Below are positions 1,382 through 14,400 of a DNA stretch of 57,924 nt, one piece after another. Source of the DNA: an uncultured Bacteroidales bacterium. Lineage in GTDB: Bacteria; Bacteroidota; Bacteroidia; Bacteroidales; WCHB1-69. The notes below the pieces were generated by a model. It saw only the letters and a program-made list of their open reading frames with translations. It was not told where the DNA came from and searched no databases. The DNA lies in the NCBI GenBank assembly GCA_900319925.1, contig ONQE01000026.1, positions 1 through 57,924 on the forward strand, written 5' to 3'. Position numbers and translations under genes: made by a program. Each line of letters opens with the position of its first letter. The stretch's first letter is position 1.

Positions 1382-2968
1382 CTATTCTTCCACCAACCAC
1401 GTCCCCACCGTCATCGTCTCCTGCTCGAAGGCCACGCCGACTTTGACGACCTTGCGGCCTTCGGTTTCGTAGGGCAGGGCGTAGTTCTTGCTGTTGATCT
1501 GGTCGAGGGCTTCCTGTGCCGTGCCGTTCGCCTTCAGTTCGAAGACGTAGGTGGTGTCGGGCATCTCCACCACGACGTCGGTGCGGCCGCCCGCGCACTT
1601 GACCTGGGTGCGCACATAGACGTTGAGCATCGAGAAGATCAGGTACAGCGACCATTCGTAAAACCCTTCGTAGTTCTTCACCTCCGCCAACTTCTTTTGG
1701 AAGCCTTCCACGTAAGGCAGTCCGGCGAAGTAGGCCTTCATCTCCTTCAGGGCAAGGTCTATGTCGTCCTTTTTCAGGGCTTGCCACAGTTTCAGGGCGA
1801 AGCCTTTCTGCACAATGGGCCCATCAATGCCTATGTAAGTGGGCAGCAACCCTCGTGTGAAGCCTAAGCGGACCTCGTTGTTGGGGATGCCGAGGGTGTA
1901 GATGTCCGACTCGCGATCGTAACCCTTGATGGTGATATAACCGCTTTGGTAGAGTAGCGGCAGGGCGGTTTCCATGGCTTCGGTGGGACAGTCGAAGGCG
2001 TCAGACGGCTCTTCCATGCGGTCCAGTGTGGTGATGTCGGTGCGGTAGTGCTGCATCTGTCGGATGAGGAAGGTCGGGGTGGCACTCTCGAACCAGTAGT
2101 TGGCGATATCCCTCTGGTTGAAACATTTCAGCAGACTGAACGGATTGTAAATGTCGGGAGACTTTTTGGCAAAGCGGTAACCGTCGTACTGCTTTTTCAG
2201 GTTGTCGTGCATCTCCTCGGGCGTGCATTCGTACTCTTCCGCGAGCATCGCGATGTCGGGGGCCATGTCGGTGACCAGTTCCTCTTCCGTGATGCCGCAG
2301 ATGGCCGCATATTTAGAATCCATAGAGATGTTGGTGAGGTTGTTGATGGTGGAGAAGATGCTCAGCTGCGAGAATTTGGTGATGCCGGTGATGAAGCAGA
2401 AGCGGATCATCGCCTCGTTCGCCTTCAGCTGGATGAAGAACTCCTGCATCACGTCGCGGAATCCGTCCAACAATTCCGGAAGGTGGAGCTTGTCCAACAG
2501 CGGTGCGTCGTATTCGTCGATGATGACGGCCACCTGCTTGCCGGTTTGATTGTAGGCGCGATGGATGAGCCCGCTGAACATTTTTCCAGGAGAAGTCTCC
2601 ATTTCGTCCTTCCCATATATTTCGCACAGAGGCCTCAAGATCCACATCAGGGTTTCTCGCAATGCCTCGATCGAACTTTCCGCTTTTGCTATGCTCAGGT
2701 CCACATGGATGACGGGGTGTTCTTCCCACTCCGTCTCCAGATCCATAATCTTGAGTCCTTCGAAAAGCTCTTTTTGTCCTTTGAAGTAGGAGTCCAGCGT
2801 GGTGGTTAGCAGGCTCTTGCCGAACCGGCGCGGCCGGCTGAGGAAGACGAAAGGACTCTCCTTGGTGATCTTCCAGACCAAGTCTGTCTTGTCGATATAG
2901 AGGTAGTTCTCTTTTCTCAGCCTTTCAAAGGTCTGGATTCCCACGGGGTATTTGCGGACGGTGTTCAT
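1382..2968 (-). CDS. AAA-ATPase-like + PD-(D/E)XK (PDDEXK_9-type) nuclease protein
   Basis: KYPVGIQTFERLR..YIDKT, SRPRRFGKSL (Walker A), IIDEYDAP (Walker B), GRTDVV..YVFELK..ALDQI..Y; start re-called at MNTVRK. Confidence 0.9.
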   Translation of the reverse strand: MNTVRKYPVGIQTFERLRKENYLYIDKTDLVWKITKESPFVFLSRPRRFGKSLLTTTLDSYFKGQKELFEGLKIMDLETEWEEHPVIHVDLSIAKAESSIEALRETLMWILRPLCEIYGKDEMETSPGKMFSGLIHRAYNQTGKQVAVIIDEYDAPLLDKLHLPELLDGFRDVMQEFFIQLKANEAMIRFCFITGITKFSQLSIFSTINNLTNISMDSKYAAICGITEEELVTDMAPDIAMLAEEYECTPEEMHDNLKKQYDGYRFAKKSPDIYNPFSLLKCFNQRDIANYWFESATPTFLIRQMQHYRTDITTLDRMEEPSDAFDCPTEAMETALPLLYQSGYITIKGYDRESDIYTLGIPNNEVRLGFTRGLLPTYIGIDGPIVQKGFALKLWQALKKDDIDLALKEMKAYFAGLPYVEGFQKKLAEVKNYEGFYEWSLYLIFSMLNVYVRTQVKCAGGRTDVVVEMPDTTYVFELKANGTAQEALDQINSKNYALPYETEGRKVVKVGVAFEQETMTVGTWLVEE

Positions 2969-3130
2969 GACGGACGGTTTTATCGCGGCAAAGGTACAAA
3001 TTTTTCGTTTACGGCTTCGCGTGGCGAAAATGTCGGGCGGTATCAACCTCCCACATTGCAAGTCTTTCGCAAGCCCTTCGCAAGTAGTAGCATCGCTCTT
3101 GCGCCCTGTCAGCGTCGTACCAGGCACGTC

Positions 3131-3245
3131 AGTTCTTCGATAGTTGTTCGATACTTCTTCGATACTTCTTCGATAGTTGTTCGATAGTTCTTCGTAATTT
3201 TACGGAGAACTATCGAACAACTCACGGAGAACTCACGGAGAACTC
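3131..3245. repeat. 11-bp tandem repeat array overlapping a ~23-bp-arm near-perfect palindrome
   Basis: A(G/C)TT(C/G)TTCGAT x5.8 (3131-3194); 3175-3197 pairs with 3200-3222; then (C)ACGGAGAACT x3. Confidence 0.85.
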
Positions 3246-3507
3246 GCGAGCCTGCGTGCTCTCTGATACGGCTCATATACGGTGCAAGGGCTTGGGAACG
3301 CCTGTATTGCCATCCACAAGAGCCATGTTGAGAATCAGTTTGGCCTTTGCGATTTCGATCTGTTCCTGTTTCTCGAAGTCGATGATCTCGTTCAGGAAAA
3401 GGGCTTTTGCCGCTTTGTTGAATGTTGATGTGTTTTTGATCAAAACAGTTCGACAACAGCCGTCACTGCGGCGGGAATGCAGAAGAACTGGTATGCCTTT
3501 TTTCTTA

Positions 3508-4053
3508 TCAACAGCGTAACGGATGGTTCACACTGTGCACAATATGCGGCAACATCTCGGTCAATGCCCGCTTGTCAGGATGATGGCCACATTTGAACGT
3601 GTAGGTCGGGAACAACATCGAAAGTTCGTCCTTGTATGAGAACAATTCATCGTTGGTGCCAAACAGGCATGTCACATCTTCAAACAGGTAGGAGGGCATT
3701 TGATCGTGGTATTCTCTTTGGAGATAATCCTCAAGGGGTTTGTATTTTGAACCGTCATAGCCGAGTTTGGGAAGTTCTACAGATGGCCTAAAACACACGT
3801 TTATCAGAATTCTCGGAACTGGGGGGTATAGGACAAGTGCGAAAAATGCGCCCAACGAGGAGGCGACGATTCCGTCAGGTGTTTCATCATTAATGAATTT
3901 CTCCAATTGTGCTAACCCGACTTTCGGTTCCTCCTGGCTATATTCAGTGGTGACAATCTCCATATCCGAAGAGCGCAACAGCTCGCCGAGTGTTCTGGCG
4001 GTGGTGGATTTTGGACTTGACCCGAAACCGTAAATGTAAAGAATCTTATTCAT
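3508..4053 (-). CDS. YqiA/YcfP (UPF0227) alpha/beta-hydrolase family esterase
   Basis: ILYIYGFGSSPKS, nucleophile elbow ASSLGAF, ILINVCFRP, FGTNDELF, C-terminal GHH. Confidence 0.85.
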   Translation of the reverse strand: MNKILYIYGFGSSPKSTTARTLGELLRSSDMEIVTTEYSQEEPKVGLAQLEKFINDETPDGIVASSLGAFFALVLYPPVPRILINVCFRPSVELPKLGYDGSKYKPLEDYLQREYHDQMPSYLFEDVTCLFGTNDELFSYKDELSMLFPTYTFKCGHHPDKRALTEMLPHIVHSVNHPLRC

Positions 4054-4092
4054 TTTCTTGTGTGAATAAAAATATAGAATTTGGTTCCTGTC

Positions 4093-4749
4093 TTAGTCGT
4101 TGAGATACTTTTTGAAATAGGAATAGTCGAAATTGTCATCCTCCCTTAACATAGAGGGGAAGAAAATGTTCATATAGTGGGCATACATTCTGTCATACCG
4201 TTCTTGATCTGCGTAGTTGCCGTCATCGTCTATTTCTCCCCACGGAGACCCATCCATATTGTCATTAATTTCATCAAACAAATATTCTTCGATGAAAAAC
4301 AGGTCAACCTCATCATGATGAAGAATGTCATTGTAGTACACTCCATCATCCTCATACGCTTTCGCCTTGCTTAGCGTTGGCATCCCGTCAATGCATGTGG
4401 CTTGATACCAGATGCTGACATTGCTACCAGACTCGGTGGCGGTTAGTAGCAATTGCATTAGGACATTCACGTTTTTGTCTTTCGCGAGTTTGATGCAGGT
4501 GCGCCGCACATCATCGATGGATCTCCGTGTGGGTATACCGGCAGGAAGTTTTTCAGAAATCTCAAAACTGACATCATTTTTGAGTTCTAATGTGAAATTT
4601 TCCGAATAGCGGATATCGTTGTATTGTAACTTCTTAATCCGATTTTCCAGTTCTGTTTTTATCAGAATCAATTCCTTCTGAGGAAGGGTTTTCATTCTGT
4701 CATCCAGAAAAATGATCTTCCAAAAGTCAACTATGTCATGTAAAACCAT
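4093..4749 (-). CDS. Hypothetical acidic protein; full-length paralog of the N-terminal domain of 5349-6536
   Basis: MVLHDIVDFWKIIFLDDRMK..IKTELENRIKKLQYNDIRY aligns with MALHDICDEWKILFLDDKMN..IKTELEERIKKLQYGDLRY; shared TATE.G, AK.YE, EYL.D and SPW motifs. Confidence 0.8.
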   Translation of the reverse strand: MVLHDIVDFWKIIFLDDRMKTLPQKELILIKTELENRIKKLQYNDIRYSENFTLELKNDVSFEISEKLPAGIPTRRSIDDVRRTCIKLAKDKNVNVLMQLLLTATESGSNVSIWYQATCIDGMPTLSKAKAYEDDGVYYNDILHHDEVDLFFIEEYLFDEINDNMDGSPWGEIDDDGNYADQERYDRMYAHYMNIFFPSMLREDDNFDYSYFKKYLND

Positions 4750-4797
4750 AATTGTTAGTGAGATTACCTGTACCTCTCAAGGTGTTGATGCGACCAA

Positions 4798-5175
4798 CTA
4801 TGAAATGACAATATCAGTGAAATACTCATAATGTAAATCCATACAATCGTTGTAGTAAACGAGTTGTCGGGGAACATGTGTCTTGAACGGACCATGTTTC
4901 ATACAATACGCTGCTCTTGTGATACGCTCTCGCAAAGCGATGCCATTTGGATCCTTTTCCAAATAATCAACAAAAGAGTCTGCGTCAGTATAATTGAGAG
5001 ACCTTAAGATTTTGATCTCTTCTTTCTTCATCTGCTTCTCAATATTGCTGATAAAAGTGTTTTTTGTACCGTTGTCGCTAATATCCGCATCGTAGAAAAC
5101 CTCGTCTTCGGTTTCCACGATGAATGCATCTTTAAGTTTATCTATCAATTTATACTTTCCAACCATAATATTCAA
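4798..5175 (-). CDS. Hypothetical protein (125 aa; start may be a few codons in)
   Basis: AT-rich ORF, co-oriented with the cluster, protein-like composition; no family recognised. Confidence 0.65.
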   Translation of the reverse strand: MNIMVGKYKLIDKLKDAFIVETEDEVFYDADISDNGTKNTFISNIEKQMKKEEIKILRSLNYTDADSFVDYLEKDPNGIALRERITRAAYCMKHGPFKTHVPRQLVYYNDCMDLHYEYFTDIVIS

Positions 5176-5286
5176 AGGACTTCTATGTTAAACAATTCAA
5201 TCGTTTCATTATGCCTTTGCGAAGTCCGTTAGACAAAAACACGATGATGACGATACACTGACAGTACTTTTTTTCTATGTCGGCTG

Positions 5287-5329
5287 ATTTTGAAAAAGTG
5301 GGGCTTTCGAGACCCCACTTTTTCAAAAT
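5287..5329. terminator. 17-bp perfect inverted repeat, terminator-like, downstream of the glycosylase fusion
   Basis: attttgaaaaagtgggg-N9-ccccactttttcaaaat. Confidence 0.6.
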
Positions 5330-5348
5330 GACAAACGGTTTAGTTGTC

Positions 5349-6536
5349 CTATTTTTTGAAGCCAAGCGCTTCCTTCCATCCTTCCAATTTTTTCTCGAAG
5401 GACATCGGATAGGCGTTGCTTGTGGAGGGAGCGGTCGCACACTTCTTTTCAATCTTGAAATGCTCTTCAAAATCCTTGAATGTTTTCTTGCCGTTGAACA
5501 CGAGAAGATCAATGGTTTGATGCTCATTCAGGAACCCTTCGAGGTTATTGTAAACCACATTCTTCATATTCTTGTCCGCAGATCCCTCGCGCTCGCACTG
5601 ATGCGCAAGATCCCACACGGCCACCTTGTTGGCTTTCAGGCATTCCTCCTTCTCATTGTAGTTTTGGAACTTTTTGCCCTTATTGTAGATTTGTTCCATG
5701 AATTTCCAGAAGCTGTTGGTGTGGGAAGCATAATATTCGCCGGTTTCGAGGGATTTGTTTCCGGGCATAGTGCCGAGAATGAGAATCTTAGGCTCATCGC
5801 CAACCAATGGATTCAGGCCTGTTATTTCATTACCGATGATTATTTCCGTCTTTTCCTCCGTCACTTCTTCCGTATATTTCTTGGGAATATATTGCTGGAA
5901 AGAAGCAGACAGTTCGTCTAACCACAAATCATAGAAGAATGCCTTTGCTGTGTAAGCAAAACACTTGTTATACAGCTTCTCTGCATCTTCGGTCAACTCA
6001 TTGTCTTCATCCTTCTCCCATGGGGATTCGTCAAAATTGTCCATTAACGTGTCCCACAAGTATTCTTGGATTTCCTCCTCATTAGTCTCATTTTCAAAAT
6101 CTATATCTGTAAAGAATTCACCGTCAATATTTTCGTACACTTTGGCATCCGCTTCTGATGTTTGTCCGAAAAGGACGGCTGCTTGCATCCAAATAATCAA
6201 TTCTTTACCATACTCGGTAGCCGTATTGAAGATTTGCACCATAACATTCAAATGATTTTCGAGTGCATAATTTTGGCACAACTCCAAAATATCCTTTTGC
6301 GCTTTTGGGAAAGGAGAACCTTCGGGGATGGAATATTGCTCACCCCAAAGGTGCTCATCTGTGTCATAATAACTTAATTTAAAATCATCCGCATAACGAA
6401 GATCACCATATTGGAGCTTTTTGATTCGCTCTTCCAATTCTGTTTTTATCCTGAAACGCCTCTCTTTGGGGATTATATTCATTTTGTCGTCCAAAAAAAG
6501 GATTTTCCATTCATCACAAATATCATGTAAAGCCAT
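5349..6536 (-). CDS. Fusion of an unknown acidic N-terminal domain and a C-terminal UDG-superfamily DNA-deoxyinosine (hypoxanthine) glycosylase
   Basis: C-terminal ~160 aa has PKILILGTMPGNKSLETGEYYASHTNSFW, VAVWD, CEREGSADKNM, VFNGKK and APSTSNAY, matching family-6 HDG/MUG-like motifs. Confidence 0.85.
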   Translation of the reverse strand: MALHDICDEWKILFLDDKMNIIPKERRFRIKTELEERIKKLQYGDLRYADDFKLSYYDTDEHLWGEQYSIPEGSPFPKAQKDILELCQNYALENHLNVMVQIFNTATEYGKELIIWMQAAVLFGQTSEADAKVYENIDGEFFTDIDFENETNEEEIQEYLWDTLMDNFDESPWEKDEDNELTEDAEKLYNKCFAYTAKAFFYDLWLDELSASFQQYIPKKYTEEVTEEKTEIIIGNEITGLNPLVGDEPKILILGTMPGNKSLETGEYYASHTNSFWKFMEQIYNKGKKFQNYNEKEECLKANKVAVWDLAHQCEREGSADKNMKNVVYNNLEGFLNEHQTIDLLVFNGKKTFKDFEEHFKIEKKCATAPSTSNAYPMSFEKKLEGWKEALGFKK

Positions 6537-6643
6537 ATCTTACGCGATTACCTATACATCGCAAGGTTCTAAATAATAGGATCCATATATGAACTATAGT
6601 GATCACCAGCAGGAACCCTTTAACCGGTGCCACAGTTTTTGCT

Positions 6644-6871
6644 CTATTCTTCTGTCAATTCAATGTTTGTTGAAGAGCGGATGAGGATAGACTGCTCTGC
6701 AGGAATGATGCAGACAGGAAGCAGGTGTCCGTTTGTGCGCTCACAGATTCGATATAGGTTATGCTTCAGCACCACAACCATCTCTGTTTTTGAATCCGTT
6801 GTTCCGAAGAAGCGTGTGTATTGCCTGTCCGTCACCTTCACTCCGTCTGCAAATGTTTCTATGATGACCAT
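6644..6871 (-). CDS. Small hypothetical protein (75 aa)
   Basis: Co-oriented ATG-start ORF in the AT-rich cluster. Confidence 0.5.
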   Translation of the reverse strand: MVIIETFADGVKVTDRQYTRFFGTTDSKTEMVVVLKHNLYRICERTNGHLLPVCIIPAEQSILIRSSTNIELTEE

Positions 6872-6971
6872 CCGAATAAATACTGTTTATTGGTATTAGA
6901 CTGTTATTACATATTATGGCATAAATATACGCCACAACAGAGTGTTTTTAACAAACCCAAAAAACAGGAGA

Positions 6972-7172
6972 CTATTTGTCTTTGTTGATAAAATCGATGA
7001 GCTTGTTTCCGAACTGACGGACAGTCCACTCCTTGTCGTATTCGAAGCCGACCTTTGCCGCTATTTCACGAAGAGCCGCCGTAGAGTTGTCATAAATGCG
7101 ATAGACCACGATGCTTCCGCTTTCTTCCTTTTGGATGATGTATTCACCCGAAATTGCTGATTTTGCTGCCAT
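6972..7172 (-). CDS. Small hypothetical protein (66 aa), first gene after the operator-bearing promoter
   Basis: MAAKSAISGEYIIQKEESGSIVVYRIYDNSTAALREIAAKVGFEYDKEWTVRQFGNKLIDFINKDK, preceded by an AT-rich translation-initiation region. Confidence 0.75.
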   Translation of the reverse strand: MAAKSAISGEYIIQKEESGSIVVYRIYDNSTAALREIAAKVGFEYDKEWTVRQFGNKLIDFINKDK

Positions 7173-7193
7173 AACTGTATGTTTTAAATTATT

Positions 7194-7283
7194 AAGAACG
7201 CCGTGAAATCCCTCTTCGGTGATTTCACAGCGCAAAAATAATATGTTAACCGATTGGCGGCTTGGTCCGAATTGGTCCGAATT
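7194..7283 (-). promoter_or_regulatory. Operator/promoter/leader-hairpin block, copy 1
   Basis: GGTCCGAATTGGTCCGAA at 7264-7281; -7 box TATTTTTG (minus strand, 7233-7240); hairpin GTGAAATC..GATTTCAC; 86/90 nt identical to 11751-11840. Confidence 0.8.
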
Positions 7284-7286
7284 TAC

Positions 7287-7379
7287 TCACTCCCGCTCCT
7301 GCCGCACCTCTGTCAACCCGCCTTTGTTGCCGACCACGAAGAGCGTCGGGACGTTGTTGCCGTGCACGAAGTTGTCGAG
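7287..7379 (-). pseudogene. Duplicated 3' end (30 codons + stop) of the regulator gene 13422-13994
   Basis: 87/93 nt identical to 13422-13514; reads LDNFVHGNNVPTLFVVGNKGGLTEVRQERE* versus LDNFVHGNNAPTLFVVGNKGGLTEVRRERE*. Confidence 0.9.
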
Positions 7380-7522
7380 ATTATCCCTTAGTAACCTGAA
7401 CTTTTGTAGAGAATACATAAAACTGTCCTATAACACGTTCCTCATGTTTTATATATTTTTCTTCATCATCTATAGGGAAAAGCGTAAATGCCACCACACC
7501 ATTCTTTTTGTGTAAGGTAGGT

Positions 7523-10500
7523 TTAATCCTTGAGGCAGCGAACGGAATAGCCCTGGTTCTTGCTGTTGGTAATGCTGGTTACGTAGGCGCTATTGTAGAA
7601 GAGGTGGCGGCGGTACGCGTCAAAGCCACTGGACTCGGTAGAACTCCAAAAGACGGCGGTGTAGCCGAAATTGCAAGAACCATTACCATTGATGTAGAAG
7701 CCCGCAGGCAACGCCCCGAAACATGTGGCGTTGTTGCTGGACGGCATGTTGCCCACATCACATTGGTTTTCACTGTAAGTCCATCCTGTGGTTGAGGCTA
7801 ACGCCTTGGCGACAAAGTTGTTGTTGTTGCCGCACAGATAGTTGCTCTGGCTACTGACATGGTTTTCCAGTTCACTCCACTCCGCGTCGCTTGGAACGTG
7901 CCACCCGTTGGGACATATACCCAGCACGCCGGAGGGAGAGGCATTGCTGGAAGAAGCCCCATGCATTACCGCAGCCCAGTTGTAAAGATAACCGTGTGTG
8001 GAAATAGTGCTGCTGCTGTTTGCTGGATAATAATAGAAATAATAGGGGTAGGCTGTTGAGGAGGAACTACCTGAAGATAGGGAAGTGCCATCCGCGTAAT
8101 GCGTAGTGCGGAGATTCTCCTGCATCCAGCACTGGTTTCCGATTTGCACCGTATTATAAACGTTTCCGTCATAGTCAGTGACAGTAGGTGTGTTAGGGCA
8201 AGAAACTTGTTGATTTGTCATGAAACTCACCTGGTTGCCATACGCCGTGCCCGCGTTGTTTGTGGCGTAGGCCCGCACATAGTAGGTGGTGTTTTGAGAC
8301 AAATCGGTAACACTGCTGGTAAAGGTGCCGGTACCGTTGCCGTCGGTGGTATGGTTGTTGCTTACCGTAGGGTTGGGCGAAGTACTCCAACACACCCCGC
8401 GGGCGGTCACAGATACACCGCCGTCAGCGGTCACGTTGCCGCCACAAGTGGCGGAGTTGGTTGTGATGTTGCTGGGCGCAGCGGTGAATACGGTGGGAAA
8501 GGAGACAAAAGTGGTGTCTCCACCACCTCCCGTCTCGTCTTTTATGCAACGGACGGAATAGCATTGTCGTATGCTGCCGAAACTCAATTGCCAGTAGATA
8601 TTGTTGGAGTAAAGGCTGAAGTCATAGAGGTATACTCCATACGAATCATCAGAATGTACGGTAGCACTCCAAAAGTGGGTGTCGCCACCGACAGCGTTGT
8701 AGCCGTTGTAGCTATAGTAGCCAGCGGGAAGGGCTGAAAAGCCCGTGCCGTTGTTGGCAGAAAGATCGTTGCCTATCACGCAGTAGCCATTCTCGGTGAT
8801 CCATCCCACCGTGTCCGCCAATGCCTTGACGATACTGTTTTCGTAACCGCATAAATGAATGCTTTGGCTACTCACAGAATCGGCCATTTGCTCCCACTCC
8901 ATTTTACTAGGCAAATGCCACCCAACGGGGCAGATGCCCCTGCGGTGGCCAGTGAACGTCACCGACATCTGGTTAGCGGGATCTGTATTCACACTTGTCT
9001 CCCCAAACATTGTATTGAACGTGTCCACCGCCGCATACCAGTTGTAGAGCAATCCGTATTTCATCGGGGCATACGTGGCGGATTCGTTGTTGTACCAGCG
9101 TGCCTGCTTACCCGTGTACGTACATACCGAATTGACATCCGGAATAAGGTAAGTTCCAGTACTCGGCGAAGTTGTGGTACGCAAATTTTCCCTCATCCAG
9201 CACTGGTTTCCGATCAGCACGGTGTTATAGACGTTGCCCTCATGGTCAGTCACGGTTGGAACACCAGGACAAGGAAGACCACCCTGTCCAGTGGTGCCAG
9301 AAGTGGTGGTAAAAGGCCATTGTTCCCCGTATGACGTACCCAGACTGTTGGTGGCATACGCCCGCACGTAATAGGTTGTGTTAGCGGCAAGCCCCGTGAT
9401 ATTGCTTGTAAAACCGCCCGTGCCACTGCCATCCGTGGTATGACTATCATTAAGGGTAGGATTATGCGATGTACTCCAGCACACTCCACGGGAAAAGACG
9501 GTATCGTTACCATCAGCTGTTACAGTTCCGCCGCAGATGGCAGAAACAGAAGAAATGCCAGTAGCAGGATTAGTGATGACTTGTGGCAAAGTCTGGTTGC
9601 TGCCAACACCGAGAACACAACGGACTGAAAGCCCTGAATTCTTATAACTCGAGTTACCACTTATGTATGTGTTGTCGGCAGACAAGTACTGGGAGGATGC
9701 ATAATCAACAGAAGTACCATTGGAAGTCCAAAAATAAGCGTATTGGCCTGCCCCATAGAGGCCTGCCCCTTGGAATCCCAAACTGTACCACTCACCTGCC
9801 GGAACGGCCGAAAAACCGGTAGCATTGTTTGTGGACGGGCTGTTGCCTATAGCGCAACTGGTGGAACTATTTTGCCATCCCGTTGTAGAAGCCAAAGCCT
9901 TAGCGATAGAATTATCACATTGGTACTGGCTTTGACTGCCCACATAAGAACTCAATTGCCACCATTCATCAAGGCTGGGAACATGCCACCCAGTAGGGCA
10001 GATACCTTGAATACCACTTGGATTTGCATTAGAGGAACAAGCATTATGCATCACAGCAGGCCAATTGTACAGATAACCATAACCTAGCTGTGCCTGATAC
10101 GAAAGGATGTAATAGTACGGCAGAATATAGCTGCCTTCACCACTCATGTTGCCTACTGGTATGGACACACCATCGGCATAATGCGTGGTTCGCAGGTTCT
10201 CTTTCATCCAACATTGGTCACCAATCTGCACGGTATTGTAAGTGTTTCCGTCAATGTCGGTGAGGGTTGCGGCATTTGGGCAAGGCTGCCCATCCATAGA
10301 CAAGGTCGTAAAACTCACCACATTTCCATACGCTGTCCCTACACTATTGGTGGCATACGCCCGCACATAATAGACTGTGTTTGCAGCCAACCCTGAGATG
10401 CTGCTGCCAAAACTGCCGGTACCGCTGCCGTTTGAAGTGTGGCTGTCATTGAGAGTTGGGTTCTGTGAAGTACTCCAACATACACCTCGTGCCGTGACAG

Positions 10501-11602
10501 GAGCAGCCACAACACTGTTCACATAGTTGTTCCCGCAATAGGCTGAGTTTCCTGTAACGTTGCTCACCGTACCCGTTGTTACCTCTGGTAAAGTGGCTGA
10601 TGTTGTGAAACTCACCTCGTTGCCATACGATGTGCCCACACTGTTTCGGGCGTATGCCCGCACATAATAGGTTCTGCCGGCATAAAGTCCAGTCAAACTG
10701 CTGGTGAAAGCACCCGTTCCGCTGCCATTCGTAGTATGGTCACCGCTAATAGTTGGGTTATGCGACAAACTCCAGCAAACACCCCTTTCCGTAACGGCCG
10801 CACCGCCGTCACTGGTTACGTTGCCGCCGCAAGTGGCTGCGTTAGACGTGATGCCACTTACTGTATTGGTGGAGACTGTTGGCATGTAGTATATTTGCGT
10901 TTCCGCAAACTGCAATGTGAATAATTGCGACGATCCCTGCGCTTGTGTGATGCGCTGGCTCTCCGCTTCCGTGTTGTTAATGAAGGCATAACCCACATAT
11001 TCCATTTGGTCGCCGAAATTGAAAGGATTGTTAGTGCTGGATTTCAACACGACGGTAATGGTCTGTACCATGCCAAGATAGTCTAATGTGTTGCTACCAC
11101 CTCCGCCGTTGCAAATCATCTTGATGGAGGATGTCTTCCCATTCTGGCGGGCGGTCATCACGTAAGTACCCGCGGTGGACAAGGAAATGCGGAATTGATG
11201 ATTTCCCGGTTGTAGAGATACAAGATTTTGTGTCTCTATGATGCGTCCATTCATATCCTTGATGTCCAAATCAACCTTGCCTTCATCCACTGTTGTCAGG
11301 CTCACCTCAGTAGTGCCACTGAAGGGGTTTGGATTGTTCTGCGACAGAACGAATCCGCCGTCCAAAGTGTGGTCGTCAATGTCCGTGCCGTTCTGCATAG
11401 TCAGCACCGTGTCGGGCCAGTAAATGGTCTCCTGCCAGCTCTTGGTCAGATTGGTTATGATAACCCTGTTAAGCTGCACATAATGGTTTGCAGCGTCCTT
11501 TGCGGTGAAAGTGAGGGTGACGGTCTGGGCGGCCAATCCGAAGGATGCAGCCGCTAAAATAAGAAATAAAAGCCCTTTTGGGCAGATATTCTTTTCTGTC
11601 AT
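7523..11602 (-). CDS. Secreted 1359-aa surface protein: signal peptide, N-proximal T9SS-CTD/FlgD-like domain, 4 FN3-like repeats, 3 Fib_succ_major (FISUMP) domains
   Basis: LAAQ signal cleavage; LSQNNPNPF..DMNGRII..AGTYVM; repeats of CGGNVT.DGG..V..RGVCWS..YYVRAYA.N..GT.YG; three D.DGN.YNTV.IG.QCWM.ENLRTT..G.LYNW.A..ICP.GWH.PS..FW..SVRC domains. Confidence 0.9.
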   Translation of the reverse strand: MTEKNICPKGLLFLILAAASFGLAAQTVTLTFTAKDAANHYVQLNRVIITNLTKSWQETIYWPDTVLTMQNGTDIDDHTLDGGFVLSQNNPNPFSGTTEVSLTTVDEGKVDLDIKDMNGRIIETQNLVSLQPGNHQFRISLSTAGTYVMTARQNGKTSSIKMICNGGGGSNTLDYLGMVQTITVVLKSSTNNPFNFGDQMEYVGYAFINNTEAESQRITQAQGSSQLFTLQFAETQIYYMPTVSTNTVSGITSNAATCGGNVTSDGGAAVTERGVCWSLSHNPTISGDHTTNGSGTGAFTSSLTGLYAGRTYYVRAYARNSVGTSYGNEVSFTTSATLPEVTTGTVSNVTGNSAYCGNNYVNSVVAAPVTARGVCWSTSQNPTLNDSHTSNGSGTGSFGSSISGLAANTVYYVRAYATNSVGTAYGNVVSFTTLSMDGQPCPNAATLTDIDGNTYNTVQIGDQCWMKENLRTTHYADGVSIPVGNMSGEGSYILPYYYILSYQAQLGYGYLYNWPAVMHNACSSNANPSGIQGICPTGWHVPSLDEWWQLSSYVGSQSQYQCDNSIAKALASTTGWQNSSTSCAIGNSPSTNNATGFSAVPAGEWYSLGFQGAGLYGAGQYAYFWTSNGTSVDYASSQYLSADNTYISGNSSYKNSGLSVRCVLGVGSNQTLPQVITNPATGISSVSAICGGTVTADGNDTVFSRGVCWSTSHNPTLNDSHTTDGSGTGGFTSNITGLAANTTYYVRAYATNSLGTSYGEQWPFTTTSGTTGQGGLPCPGVPTVTDHEGNVYNTVLIGNQCWMRENLRTTTSPSTGTYLIPDVNSVCTYTGKQARWYNNESATYAPMKYGLLYNWYAAVDTFNTMFGETSVNTDPANQMSVTFTGHRRGICPVGWHLPSKMEWEQMADSVSSQSIHLCGYENSIVKALADTVGWITENGYCVIGNDLSANNGTGFSALPAGYYSYNGYNAVGGDTHFWSATVHSDDSYGVYLYDFSLYSNNIYWQLSFGSIRQCYSVRCIKDETGGGGDTTFVSFPTVFTAAPSNITTNSATCGGNVTADGGVSVTARGVCWSTSPNPTVSNNHTTDGNGTGTFTSSVTDLSQNTTYYVRAYATNNAGTAYGNQVSFMTNQQVSCPNTPTVTDYDGNVYNTVQIGNQCWMQENLRTTHYADGTSLSSGSSSSTAYPYYFYYYPANSSSTISTHGYLYNWAAVMHGASSSNASPSGVLGICPNGWHVPSDAEWSELENHVSSQSNYLCGNNNNFVAKALASTTGWTYSENQCDVGNMPSSNNATCFGALPAGFYINGNGSCNFGYTAVFWSSTESSGFDAYRRHLFYNSAYVTSITNSKNQGYSVRCLKD
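11212..11239. repeat. GTAG-type REP-like 28-bp palindrome inside coding sequence (encodes IETQNLVSLQ)
   Basis: gtagagatacaagattttgtgtctctat; its minus strand matches the intergenic copy at 46476-46503 at 20/28 positions. Confidence 0.65.
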
Positions 11603-11750: not shown

Positions 11751-11840
11751 AAGAACGCCGTGAAATCCCTCTTCGGTGATTTCACAGCGCAAAAATAATA
11801 TCTAAACCGATTGGTGGTTTGGTCCGAATTGGTCCGAATT
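11751..11840 (-). promoter_or_regulatory. Operator/promoter/leader-hairpin block, copy 2
   Basis: GGTCCGAATTGGTCCGAA at 11821-11838; -7 box at 11790-11797; hairpin followed on the minus strand by GTTC-T9. Confidence 0.8.
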
Positions 11841-11850
11841 AAGGGTGCTA

Positions 11851-13293
11851 TCAGTCGAAAAGGTCGTCTAAGGTGACGCTGCATTGGATGACGGAGCTGT
11901 TCTTGCCCGGGACAATTCCGAACGTGGAGATCAGGGTGGTGAGGATGGTGGCGCGCGTTTTCACAGATTCCCTGAAGACGGCCACCTTTTGGCGCAACTT
12001 GTCCGCGTAGTCCTTGGTGATAAGAAACGGCTCGTTGGCGCAGAATTTGATCTCGCACAGGTTGATGGCCCTGTCGCCGCGTTCCAACACCAGGTCTATT
12101 TGAGCCCCGGCGTCTTGTGCATCCCGGTCCCACCAGGAGAACGCATTGCAAAGGACTCCGGAAATTCCCAAGCCGCGCTTGATTTGCTCCACATGGGTCA
12201 AACATATCAGCTCAAAAGTGAGACCGTTCCAGACCTGTGTCGCAGGGGTGTTGATGGTGTGAGACCAAAACCTCGGGTCCAGTCCTTCCTTCCCTTTGAT
12301 GAACTTCAAGTAAAACAAGGTGTAAAAATCGCACAGCCTGTATTTTATGTCTCTTTTCTTGTCCATGGAATAGTATGAGGAGATGAAGAAGCAGTTCTTC
12401 AGATCCCTGAGATAACGGCTGATGTCACCGCCGCATTTCTTGCCTAACAATGCGCATATTTCGGTCCGCGAATACCCTGCCTTTTTGCCGGCAAGAATTT
12501 CGATGATGTGCCTGTAGGTTTCCGGCTTTTTGAATAAGGAACTAAACAGCCGGTCGTATTCACCGGACAAGGGGGCACCCTGGCTGAAGAACAGCTCGTC
12601 AATGTTTTGCGCGAGACTTTTCCCTCGTTTCAGTTGTCGCAGATAGTAAGGGATGCCCCCCATCACCATATAGCAACGCAATATCTCGATTCTGTCGTAA
12701 GCGAAGCCCCGGCTGCTGAGATACGACTCCGTTTCAGACAGGGTGAAAGGGGATATCAACATCGGATGAGTGATGCGGTTGTACAAGCCCCCCGTGTTGT
12801 TGATGACGTTGTCGATGATGTATGAGGTGGCGGAACCGCAAACGATGAACATCAGATTGGATCTGTGAGCTGCCCAGTCGTTCCAGAAATGCTCCAATGC
12901 GGTGATGAATCCGGAAGAGGGAGTGTCCATCCATGGCAGCTCGTCAATGAAAACCACCTGCCGCTCTTGGTTGTCCGCATTGGTCAACAGGTCTTGGAGG
13001 TTGTTGAAGGCCTCAAACCAATCCGAAGGTTTCTCGTATTCCCGAATCCCATATTGATTCAGAGCCGTTTGGAAGTTTTCCAACTGCCGTTCCTTCAGGT
13101 TGATGTTGTCGGATTCGATTGGGGAGAGTCCTGTCACGCAAAAATCGAACCGATTTTGGAAAAAATGGTGGACCAAAAAGGTTTTCCCCACGCGTCGCCT
13201 GCCGTAAATTACGATGAATTCTGCCTCGCGAGAATCGTAATATTCTTGTAAATCAGTAAGTTCCTTCTTTCTTCCGATGATTTCTGCTGTCAT
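11851..13293 (-). CDS. AAA family ATPase (ATPase_2/archaeal ATPase type) with C-terminal PD-(D/E)XK-like domain
   Basis: IIGRKKEL, YGRRRVGKT (Walker A), VFIDELPW, IVCGSA, GGIPYYL, C-terminal AQIDLVLER..INLCEIKF. Confidence 0.88.
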   Translation of the reverse strand: MTAEIIGRKKELTDLQEYYDSREAEFIVIYGRRRVGKTFLVHHFFQNRFDFCVTGLSPIESDNINLKERQLENFQTALNQYGIREYEKPSDWFEAFNNLQDLLTNADNQERQVVFIDELPWMDTPSSGFITALEHFWNDWAAHRSNLMFIVCGSATSYIIDNVINNTGGLYNRITHPMLISPFTLSETESYLSSRGFAYDRIEILRCYMVMGGIPYYLRQLKRGKSLAQNIDELFFSQGAPLSGEYDRLFSSLFKKPETYRHIIEILAGKKAGYSRTEICALLGKKCGGDISRYLRDLKNCFFISSYYSMDKKRDIKYRLCDFYTLFYLKFIKGKEGLDPRFWSHTINTPATQVWNGLTFELICLTHVEQIKRGLGISGVLCNAFSWWDRDAQDAGAQIDLVLERGDRAINLCEIKFCANEPFLITKDYADKLRQKVAVFRESVKTRATILTTLISTFGIVPGKNSSVIQCSVTLDDLFD

Positions 13294-13421: not shown

Positions 13422-13994
13422 TCACTCCCGCTCCCGCCGCACCTCCGTCAGCCCGCCTTTGTTGCCGACCACGAAGAGGGTGGGGGCGTTGTTGCCGTGC
13501 ACGAAGTTGTCGAGGTAGAGCGGCTCCCCGAGGATGAAGCAGGAACACGAAAAGGAATCGCCGGGCTTGAGCTTGGAGTTCTCGCTCTCCACCACCATGA
13601 AGCTCCCTTCGCCGAGATGGCGCAGCAGCACACGGCGGTCGGGCGACCAGGCGATGCGCACAAAACCCTCCTGCGGGATCTCGTCGGGATGCAGGACGCG
13701 GCCCAACACCGGGTTCGAGGATTCGCCCGCGCGGTCGTGGTTGGCCAGGAAATCGTCCCAGTCGTGAAAACCCACGCAACGGGCGAGGACCGAGAGGGTG
13801 GAGTAGCGGGTGGTGTCGTAACCCTCCACATAGCCCCAGATGCGCTTGAGGGTGGTCACCCCCAAGGTCTCCTTGCAGCGCTCCTGGATCACGCCGGTGA
13901 GGAACTGGAAGTCGGCGGGAGTCTTCATCTTGCGCGACACGGACTCCTCCACCATTTCGCGGAGTTGCAGGATTTCGGTTTCGTTGGGCTTCAT
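13422..13994 (-). CDS. Uncharacterised putative DNA-binding regulator (N-terminal HTH-like region, C-terminal beta-rich domain)
   Basis: Helical N-terminus TPADFQFL..LGVTTLKRIWGY..YSTLSVLARCVGFHDWDDF resembles an XRE-like HTH; its own promoter carries the repeated motif. The regulator function is inferred. Confidence 0.65.
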   Translation of the reverse strand: MKPNETEILQLREMVEESVSRKMKTPADFQFLTGVIQERCKETLGVTTLKRIWGYVEGYDTTRYSTLSVLARCVGFHDWDDFLANHDRAGESSNPVLGRVLHPDEIPQEGFVRIAWSPDRRVLLRHLGEGSFMVVESENSKLKPGDSFSCSCFILGEPLYLDNFVHGNNAPTLFVVGNKGGLTEVRRERE

Positions 13995-14061: not shown

Positions 14062-14182
14062 CAATGACGCCGCTTCCCTTCACCTTCCTTGGAACCGTTC
14101 CGCGCGGCAAAAATACTATTTTTAAAGGTGAGATTTTTTTTTTCGAAAAAAATGTAACCTTTTTGATTTTTTGCATCTGTAT

Positions 14183-14339
14183 AGTGAATGGTGAATTGTG
14201 ATTAGTGTGATTAGTGAATTGTGATTGGTGAATTGTGATTGGTGAATAGTGATTGGTGAATTGTGATTGGTGAATTGTGATTGGTGAATTGTGATTGGTG
14301 AATTGTGATTGGTGAATTGTGAGTGAATTGTGATTAGTG
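14183..14339. repeat. Tandem repeat, 14-bp unit GTGAATTGTGATTG (paired heptamers), about 11 units
   Basis: Directly visible; no unique spacers. Confidence 0.95.
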
Positions 14340-14400
14340 CAATATTTTTGATGTGTTTTCGTTTAGTAGAATAGATATGAAGCGTTTTATAATTCGTAAG

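Follow-up and report, generated by a model that had tools for sequence, protein, structure and literature searches.

What is a hypoxanthine-DNA glycosylase (HDG) doing in a gene cluster where it is fused to a strongly acidic domain of no recognizable family, and where the same domain is also encoded as a free protein? The question is raised by contig ONQE01000026.1 (assembly GCA_900319925.1) from an uncultured rumen Bacteroidales bacterium of the GTDB lineage WCHB1-69, the whole analyzed stretch of which, 57,924 nt, is referred to here as the window. At 3508–7172 six co-oriented open reading frames (ORFs) lie on the minus strand and form a cassette of about 3.8 kb, which the initial annotation, made from the letters of the sequence, had taken for an undescribed defense or DNA-damage module. 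The analysis described below shows that the glycosylase belongs to a dedicated sub-clade of HDGs with interchangeable acidic partners, and that the cassette is assembled from exchangeable parts around this one enzyme. What the cassette does is answered more tentatively, with a preference for a conflict system of the defense type. Throughout, G000 denotes the genome of the window, other genomes are numbered with G, related loci and contigs with L, and representatives of protein clusters with P.

The Fusion Protein and Its Acidic Domain

The third gene of the cassette (5349–6536, minus strand, 395 aa) encodes an acidic domain at residues 1–215 (5892–6536) followed by a linker and the HDG domain (5349–5873 including the stop codon). 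Residues 240–387 score 142.9 bits (E = 8e-42; cut-off 80) with the NCBIfam model for DNA-deoxyinosine glycosylase, TIGR04274, and the profile is covered end to end, from position 1 to position 150 of 150. The domain also matches the Pfam UDG family PF03167 (34.3 bits; cut-off 24.3), and in a 40-sequence alignment with 39 stand-alone HDGs it keeps all 13 invariant columns. Judged by these matches, the glycosylase is a bona fide family-6 member within the superfamily of uracil-DNA glycosylases (UDGs), and nothing points to inactivity. HDG is described as acting on hypoxanthine in DNA and not on uracil (PMC5387724). In its score, which is at equivalog level, and in its invariant columns the window enzyme resembles the HDG family; it differs from that family in its 215-aa orphan acidic fusion, in its place in a sub-clade whose full-length members all have an acidic fusion partner, and in lying in a mosaic cassette instead of a stable locus. 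A genome search found it to be the sole HDG of its genome, which is 87% complete. An HDG above the cut-off occurs in 10 of 152 genomes of the bacterial family, G000 counted, and 6 of 54 other genomes of the same genus have a match at E ≤ 1e-5; among phage and plasmid records HDG was found in 5 of 50,697 and 20 of 72,556, respectively.

The acidic N-terminal domain (hereafter N-domain) contains 50 aspartate and glutamate residues against 20 lysine and arginine residues and has an isoelectric point (pI) of 4.2. A paralog of this domain is encoded by itself two genes further on (par218; 4093–4749, minus strand, 218 aa), where it is 40% identical to the N-domain over 201 residues (E = 2e-45), has a pI of 4.55, and shows a ratio of nonsynonymous to synonymous substitution rates (dN/dS) of 0.32. 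The initial reading of the fusion as an unrecognized acidic domain joined to a family-6 UDG-like glycosylase, and of par218 as the acidic domain alone, was accordingly confirmed by the TIGR04274 and Pfam UDG matches and by the alignment of the two acidic sequences.

This acidic domain is an orphan. Neither the N-domain nor par218 matched any Pfam, NCBIfam, PHROG, or PADLOC model. A profile search among 5.8 billion proteins placed the N-domain in a family of nine clusters, and an exhaustive search of 1.84 billion representatives yielded no relatives of it beyond P0005, P0009, and P0016. The domain stands by itself in P0005, P0016, and P0154–P0156. It was present in three of the 152 genomes of the bacterial family, again counting G000, and was absent from all 400 further genomes drawn from the order. 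Its AF2 model shows a confident alpha/beta fold (pLDDT 87.7), for which Foldseek returned no convincing relative in the PDB (best E = 0.046). In a wide VIA search the best row, a type VI secretion system (T6SS) effector-immunity complex, had Z 5.5, which is under the tool's stated noise level, and a row for a CdiA-CT/immunity complex at Z 4.4 lies within the same noise. In BFVD no row was better than E = 1.9e-3; several were named ‘YubB ferredoxin-like’, and all were too weak to name the fold. The ESM Atlas provided no usable match for the N-domain, and sequence profile searches of the PDB gave nothing significant for two query proteins, the N-domain among them. These PDB, VIA, BFVD, and PDB-sequence lists neither support nor exclude any known family of DNA mimics or immunity proteins as kin of the N-domain. 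A predicted complex between the HDG domain and the N-domain received a score of 0.00 and a mark of 0.32 and carries no weight either way.

A Clade of Glycosylases With Acidic Partners

The near relatives of the fusion were surveyed as the best 150 of 3469 cluster representatives recovered with it as query. An HDG domain was present in 147 of them, of which 85 stand alone, 54 carry an N-terminal extension of at least 60 aa, and 8 carry a C-terminal extension. The expectation that HDGs are usually single-domain proteins is therefore only roughly right. Most of the N-terminal extensions are basic and about 100 aa long; they can be grouped into three families without a name (25, 12, and 7 representatives), and Pfam has none of them.

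Seven proteins in this set have strongly acidic partners (net charge no higher than −28). Of these, P0075 was set aside, as it seems to run on into a lipoprotein gene. The remaining six acid-fused HDGs (P0003, P0004, P0006, P0007, P0008, and P0010) are also the top-scoring HDG matches, and the net charges of their partners range from −28 to −80. In a midpoint-rooted FastTree phylogeny of 145 HDG domains, with two domains of less than 120 aa excluded, all six share one node of seven tips with an SH-like support of 0.87, the seventh tip being P0088, an unfused protein of 197 aa. The acidic partner is N-terminal in the window fusion and in P0004 and C-terminal in P0006, P0007, P0008, and P0010. 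Except for a repeat domain shared by P0007, P0008, and P0010 the partners are mutually unalignable, and BLASTP comparison of P0004 with P0008 detected similarity only inside the HDG domain. The acid-fused HDGs thus form a dedicated sub-clade in which acidic partners are interchangeable. Fusions elsewhere among the HDGs are of other kinds, such as one to Ogt in P0051 and the basic extensions, which look DNA-binding.

A further connection is provided by p125, the gene between the fusion and par218 (4798–5175, minus strand). It was called as 125 aa; a 122-aa protein that starts, like P0157, with the ATG at 5166 is likelier. The protein is 38% identical to the C-terminal partner domain of P0006, itself an HDG (E = 5e-18), is otherwise related only to four near-identical clusters, and has a dN/dS of 0.06. 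The match to the P0006 partner indicates that the window encodes two distinct HDG partner domains as free proteins. With p125 as a second partner and with a single clade uniting the fusions, the link between HDGs and acidic partners is stronger than was known to the initial annotation.

Exchangeable Parts Around a Constant Enzyme

Comparison with related loci shows how variable the cassette is. Its outer limits are drawn at 3416 and 7186 on the minus strand, where similarity to related, metagenome, and RNA-library contigs begins and ends (BLASTN blocks and shared contig ends). The long form found in the window recurs on metagenome contig L008 with 96% identity over 3416–7186. A short form is present in genome G009 and on contigs L006, L009, and L010 of metagenome-assembled genomes, where BLASTN joins 3416–4073 directly to 5291–7445 and 4074–5290, the segment that holds p125 and par218 (minus strand), is missing. 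Alignment of the junctions places this two-gene insert exactly between the start of the esterase gene and the hairpin that follows the fusion stop codon. That hairpin (5298–5318, minus strand) is GC-rich, carries a T-run, and stands directly 3′ of the stop, with the 1.2-kb insert beginning right behind it.

The N-domain itself has been exchanged. In G055 (L004 and L007) and in L011 the HDG domain and the genes upstream of the fusion are 90–93% identical to the window in DNA, whereas codons 16–238 of the fusion find no DNA match and the N-domain they encode is only 43–45% identical. This pattern is a clean replacement of the N-domain by recombination inside near-identical flanks. Divergence from G009 is mosaic, the first gene of the cassette (s66) being 86% identical and the N-domain 99%, and a DNA contig from sheep gut connects 7174 with 6546 and so lacks s66 and its neighbor s75. 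As these comparisons show, the cassette is built from exchangeable parts around a constant HDG. The proposal of an undescribed defense or DNA-damage module gains from this mosaic structure, from the failure of family and PADLOC models to recognize the parts, and from the accessory distribution already given (HDG in 10 of 152 genomes, the acidic domain in 3 of 152); to that extent the proposal stood, its functional half being taken up below.

The six ORFs are evidently all real genes under purifying selection, because pairwise dN/dS against related loci is 0.05–0.46 for every one of them. Both the co-orientation and the AT-richness of the cluster that had been pointed out initially were seen again, in the ORF calls and in base composition: GC content in a sliding window drops to 0.37–0.44 over 3750–7250 between flanks at 0.50–0.60, and the cassette genes range from 0.365 to 0.467 against 0.532 for the window as a whole. 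Two alternative gene models were rejected. An 87-aa version of the first gene, starting from a TTG, was discarded in favor of the ATG at 7172 at which all homologues start, and a 114-aa ORF at 5183–5527, which overlaps the 3′ end of the fusion in another frame and matches no family, was taken as spurious.

The Leader Protein, s75, and the Esterase

The first gene of the cassette, s66 (6972–7172, minus strand, 66 aa), is of interest because of the company its relatives keep. Neither s66 nor s75 nor p125 belongs to any Pfam, NCBIfam, PHROG, or PADLOC family. The s66 domain is found in 28 of the 152 genomes, often as a tandem pair or fused, and s66 of the cassette has a dN/dS of 0.14. Its AF2 model (pLDDT 91) shows a three-stranded sheet and a helix-loop-helix, the latter weakly similar in VIA to SAP, LEM, Rho-N, and endonuclease VII C-terminal motifs (Z 2.7–4.6), which we treat as a lead only. 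Foldseek found nothing for s66, and the tandem form retrieved only unnamed Bacteroidota clusters from the ESM Atlas.

In genome G021 a tandem s66 lies directly before a 595-aa HDG with two acidic repeats, similar to P0008, which is followed by two small acidic proteins. In G052, G094, and G014 (L023, L025, and L027) a tandem s66 is directly followed by a GIY_YIG_2 gene (E = 1e-15 to 1e-17), and elsewhere s66 is fused to or adjoins proteins that resemble PD-(D/E)XK nucleases, on the basis of a weak PDDEXK_4 match (E = 0.002) and a motif recognized by eye. These tandem and nuclease-linked arrangements were noted at L023, L025, L027, L026, L036, and L043, in genomes G052, G094, G014, G113, G121, and G053. 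The s66 family may form small adaptor-plus-nuclease modules in its own right.

The second gene, s75 (6644–6871, minus strand, 75 aa), is present in L003 and L004 and is kept in the short-form loci, with dN/dS values of 0.00–0.14. The last gene (3508–4053, minus strand, 181 aa) had been called an esterase, and this was upheld by a match to PF05728 (UPF0227/YqiA; E = 2.8e-9, 37.6 bits against a cut-off of 21). With the YqiA equivalog NF008291 it scores 30.3 bits where the cut-off is 252, and it is a distant relative of YqiA rather than YqiA itself. While it shares the PF05728 match with the YqiA/UPF0227 esterases, it differs from them in having its orthologues confined to the cassette: those of at least 94% identity are restricted to the three genomes that carry the fusion, and other matches reach no more than 42%. 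In the same bacterial family, distant relatives of about 380 aa (for example, L055:820–1992 in G037, with similar proteins in other genomes) carry a fused NT5C deoxynucleotidase domain and adjoin DUF4143/PDC-S01 ATPases.

Repeats and Neighboring Genes

The cassette was initially described as lying between two AAA-ATPase/PD-(D/E)XK genes. On the left this is correct, the gene at 1382–3127 having AAA-ATPase_like and PDDEXK_9 domains in Pfam. On the right the adjacent gene (7523–11602) encodes a 1359-aa surface protein with Fib_succ_major and Por_Secre_tail domains, and only the gene after it (11851–13293) encodes an ATPase, a 480-aa ATPase_2 protein for which the match to the PADLOC candidate family PDC-S27 (E = 4e-191) extends from end to end and in which Pfam detects no PD-(D/E)XK domain.

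Upstream of s66, where an operator-bearing promoter had been supposed, a strong palindrome does exist at 7203–7228 (15-bp stem, −26.6 kcal/mol, z −6.7), in two exact copies against 0.01 expected. It forms part of a 90-bp leader segment at 7194–7283 (no strand assigned) of which a 96% identical copy lies at 11751–11840, ahead of the Fib_succ_major gene. Next to it, 7287–7379 (minus strand) is a displaced copy of an ORF 3′ end, 94% identical to 13422–13514, where that ORF ends at 13422; sheep-gut contigs continue past 7379 into other sequence. The duplication of the 90-bp segment and of the ORF 3′ end shows that insertion or recombination has rebuilt the region. Since the palindrome falls within the duplicated segment and behind the duplicated ORF 3′ end, it may be no operator but a terminator that has been displaced. 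A scan for sigma-70 promoters and terminators was uninformative for this Bacteroidota genome. The unit of about 190 bp formed by the ORF 3′ end and the hairpin is contiguous at 7194–7379 and is split, at 13514–13422 and 11840–11751, by the PDC-S27 gene, a scar that insertion or recombination has left in a hot spot for cassettes.

Other repeats were observed further out. Five 11-bp tandem repeats at 3133–3205 run into an inverted copy at 3200–3249 and give a long hairpin in the leader of the AAA-ATPase_like/PDDEXK_9 gene; metagenome contigs break or differ at 3133–3249, and matches of the hairpin at 3149–3248 to plant miRNAs in Rfam were sub-threshold and dismissed as spurious. At 14155–14345 there are about 10 copies of a 14-bp (7 + 7) tandem repeat, with an inverted copy at 130–188, 14 kb away, so placed that the arrays bracket the whole variable region together with the cassette.

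Among the loci related to the cassette, PADLOC candidate-defense genes were met in four different arrangements. The related loci carry an SNF2 helicase (ZorD/DpdE-like), an MNT-HepT pair (PDC-S09), two ATPases with DUF4143 (PDC-S01), PDC-S29, and a Schlafen/AlbA_2 protein. The surroundings of the copies examined showed no gene for an integrase, a transposase, conjugation, or phage structure, and no toxin, Rhs, T6SS, or recombinase gene was seen in the first 15 kb of the window or in the related loci examined. In four arrangements the HDG gene or cassette stands just downstream of a giant Fib_succ_major/Por_Secre_tail protein of 1359–2837 aa (window 7523–11602; L006:33–8546; L008:1583–7969; L014:2528–6727). 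The acid-fused HDG islet of G021 lies beside mutL and an apparent tRNA gene (L013:8375–8542, recognized by eye from an ORF translation), which would be a typical site of island insertion if the tRNA reading holds.

Occurrence and RNA-Library Contigs

The cassette stretch was found in gut metagenomes of cattle and sheep (20 run rows from 10 studies), and five of these rows may be its source. The N-domain, the close HDG relatives, and s66 had no match in phage or plasmid records (tblastn) or in IMG/VR contigs. In two sheep-gut studies, RNA-library contigs span all the gene junctions of the long form, and one of these contigs ends in adapter sequence at 7186.

Competing Explanations

The explanation we favor, although it is possible rather than probable, is that the cassette is a host-side base-excision module of the conflict (defense) type, in which a constant glycosylase is combined with a variable acidic regulator or sensor. 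The glycosylase would be the DNA-acting effector, removing from invading or damaged DNA a purine that is deaminated or unusual in some other way. Regulation or specificity would lie with the fast-changing acidic domain: as a pseudo-substrate or a sensor it would restrain or guide the enzyme, and it would be the part that encounters the variable adversary. This interaction would be widened or buffered by the free paralogs, and s66 would act as a small nucleic-acid-binding adaptor or regulator. A conflict system fits better than housekeeping repair because a constant enzyme is accompanied by a fast-turning, swappable partner with free paralogs, and the fit is furthered by the leader shared with nucleases, the presence and absence of the cassette, its low GC, its candidate defense neighbors, and the lack of a viral or plasmid trace. 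Base excision on the side of the host is preferred because UDG-fold glycosylases, Brig1 and Brig2, are already known as anti-phage effectors. A more elaborate proposal, which we regard as unlikely, is that the acid-fused clade is a modular base-excision immunity family with a constant purine-specific effector. Its interchangeable acidic domain would lock the enzyme intramolecularly as a pseudo-substrate and would also sense a variable phage or foreign factor, the free paralogs would be spare or decoy sensors, and s66 would be an adaptor shared with GIY-YIG and PD-(D/E)XK-like effectors.

Several observations weigh against a conflict module. None of the six cassette proteins matched PADLOC-DB 2.0.0 (2023) at E ≤ 0.1, the flanking genes match only PDC families, and the G021 fusion with its small neighbors was likewise without a PADLOC match. 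The PDC are candidate families only, and their proximity to the cassette may be due to chance, because DUF4143 and AAA ATPases are common in Bacteroidales; stand-alone HDGs of related genomes are also found behind large surface-protein genes, with no obvious defense genes about. We know of no phage in which hypoxanthine is a base of the DNA, and an orthodox HDG would excise hypoxanthine only; a changed specificity would be pure conjecture, because the enzyme scores as an ordinary equivalog. The RNA-library contigs are compatible with a single transcript, with DNA carry-over a possible source of them. Finally, plain repair fits because other HDGs carry Ogt (P0051) or basic extensions that look DNA-binding.

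Repair is the rival to be taken most seriously, and yet we consider it rather unlikely. The HDG would here remove deaminated purines in a deamination-rich niche, with the acidic domains as adaptors between proteins or as tails for solubility or regulation and with the esterase and small proteins as passengers, and this agrees with an equivalog-level enzyme that retains all conserved residues, is the sole HDG of its genome, belongs to a family where N-terminal extensions are frequent (54 of 147), and is rare in phages and plasmids. What repair genes do not usually display is the swap of a domain within near-identical flanks, free paralogs of a partner domain, or cassettes that are present in one genome and absent from another; the pairing of one enzyme with several unrelated acidic domains in the acid-fused clade and a leader protein, s66, common to nuclease genes also speak against repair. 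That turnover of the acidic part around a constant enzyme, with small acidic paralogs in an AT-rich mosaic islet, could instead mark an array that couples immunity with repair, in which acidic proteins neutralize the basic, DNA-binding domains of DNA-attacking interbacterial toxins (deaminases or nucleases, for example) and HDG mends the damage that escapes. Immunity proteins of nuclease toxins are typically acidic, and the T6SS effector-immunity and CdiA-CT/immunity rows of the VIA search, both within noise, would be of the expected kind. Such an array is nevertheless quite improbable in our view: the structural similarity does not rise above noise, the first 15 kb of the window and the related loci examined showed no gene for a toxin, Rhs, T6SS, or a recombinase, and known DNA deaminase toxins yield uracil, not hypoxanthine.

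The strong negative charge (pI 4.2–4.6) could also belong to counter-defense cargo of a mobile element, with the acidic domains as DNA mimics that block host restriction or other defenses that bind DNA and the glycosylase cleaning the incoming DNA. The weak BFVD rows to phage and ‘YubB ferredoxin-like’ proteins and a Kinase-PolyVal fragment on the G055 contig would accord with this, but the phage, plasmid, and IMG/VR collections yielded no relatives of the acidic domain, of the HDG clade, or of s66, and neither integrase or transposase genes nor genes for conjugation or phage structure were seen beside any copy examined, so that we hold cargo of this sort to be very unlikely. Least likely of all is a pair resembling a toxin-antitoxin system, in which the glycosylase would be a DNA-damaging toxin restrained either by its fused acidic domain together with the free paralogs or by s66, encoded upstream, as the antitoxin. 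A small gene does precede three kinds of DNA-acting enzymes (HDG, GIY-YIG, and nuclease-like), and free copies of the putative inhibitor do adjoin the fusion; an HDG-type enzyme with orthodox motifs is, however, not expected to be toxic, and it would be unusual for an antitoxin to be fused, as s66 also is, to the enzymes beside it.

Relation to Known Systems and Implications

In their very acidic small domains tied to a DNA-binding enzyme (pI 4.2–4.6 in the window) the cassette proteins recall Ugi, Ocr, and ArdA, which are acidic DNA-mimic inhibitors; unlike these, the window domain is covalently fused to the glycosylase and host-encoded, and no sequence or structure match to them was returned by the searches. 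Brig1 and Brig2 are described as UDG-superfamily glycosylases that defend against phages with modified bases (bioRxiv 10.1101/2025.10.29.685425; PMC11078745), with Brig2 homologues reported in A/T-rich, recently acquired regions (bioRxiv 10.1101/2025.10.29.685425). Compared by these descriptions only, the window shares with them a UDG-superfamily catalytic domain and an A/T-rich, recently shuffled region near candidate defense genes, but the Brig glycosylases are described as single proteins acting on modified pyrimidines, whereas the window has a purine-specific family-6 enzyme of multiple domains in a six-gene operon. In the literature on HDG and on defense glycosylases, taken without the supplementary tables of the Brig2 preprint, no HDG fusion and no defense role of an HDG was found. 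Thus, the enzyme family and the principle of glycosylase-based defense are already known, and what is new is the acid-fused HDG sub-clade, the orphan partner domains (the N-domain and p125), the s66 leader family, and the behavior of the cassette.

Glycosylases have only recently been recognized as anti-phage effectors, and those so far described are single proteins that act on modified pyrimidines or guanines. Even if the cassette serves repair only, it brings to light a clean sub-clade of HDGs with obligate and interchangeable acidic partners and three orphan families that are absent from databases. If it is a conflict module, glycosylase defense would extend to the purine-specific family-6 UDGs and would include a sensor/effector or lock/enzyme architecture made by domain shuffling, and the orphan acidic domains would be candidates for natural regulators or inhibitors of the UDG fold and for reagents in base editing. 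Should the modular immunity proposal prove true, rumen Bacteroidales would possess a defense family in which one adaptor serves many DNA-damaging effectors.

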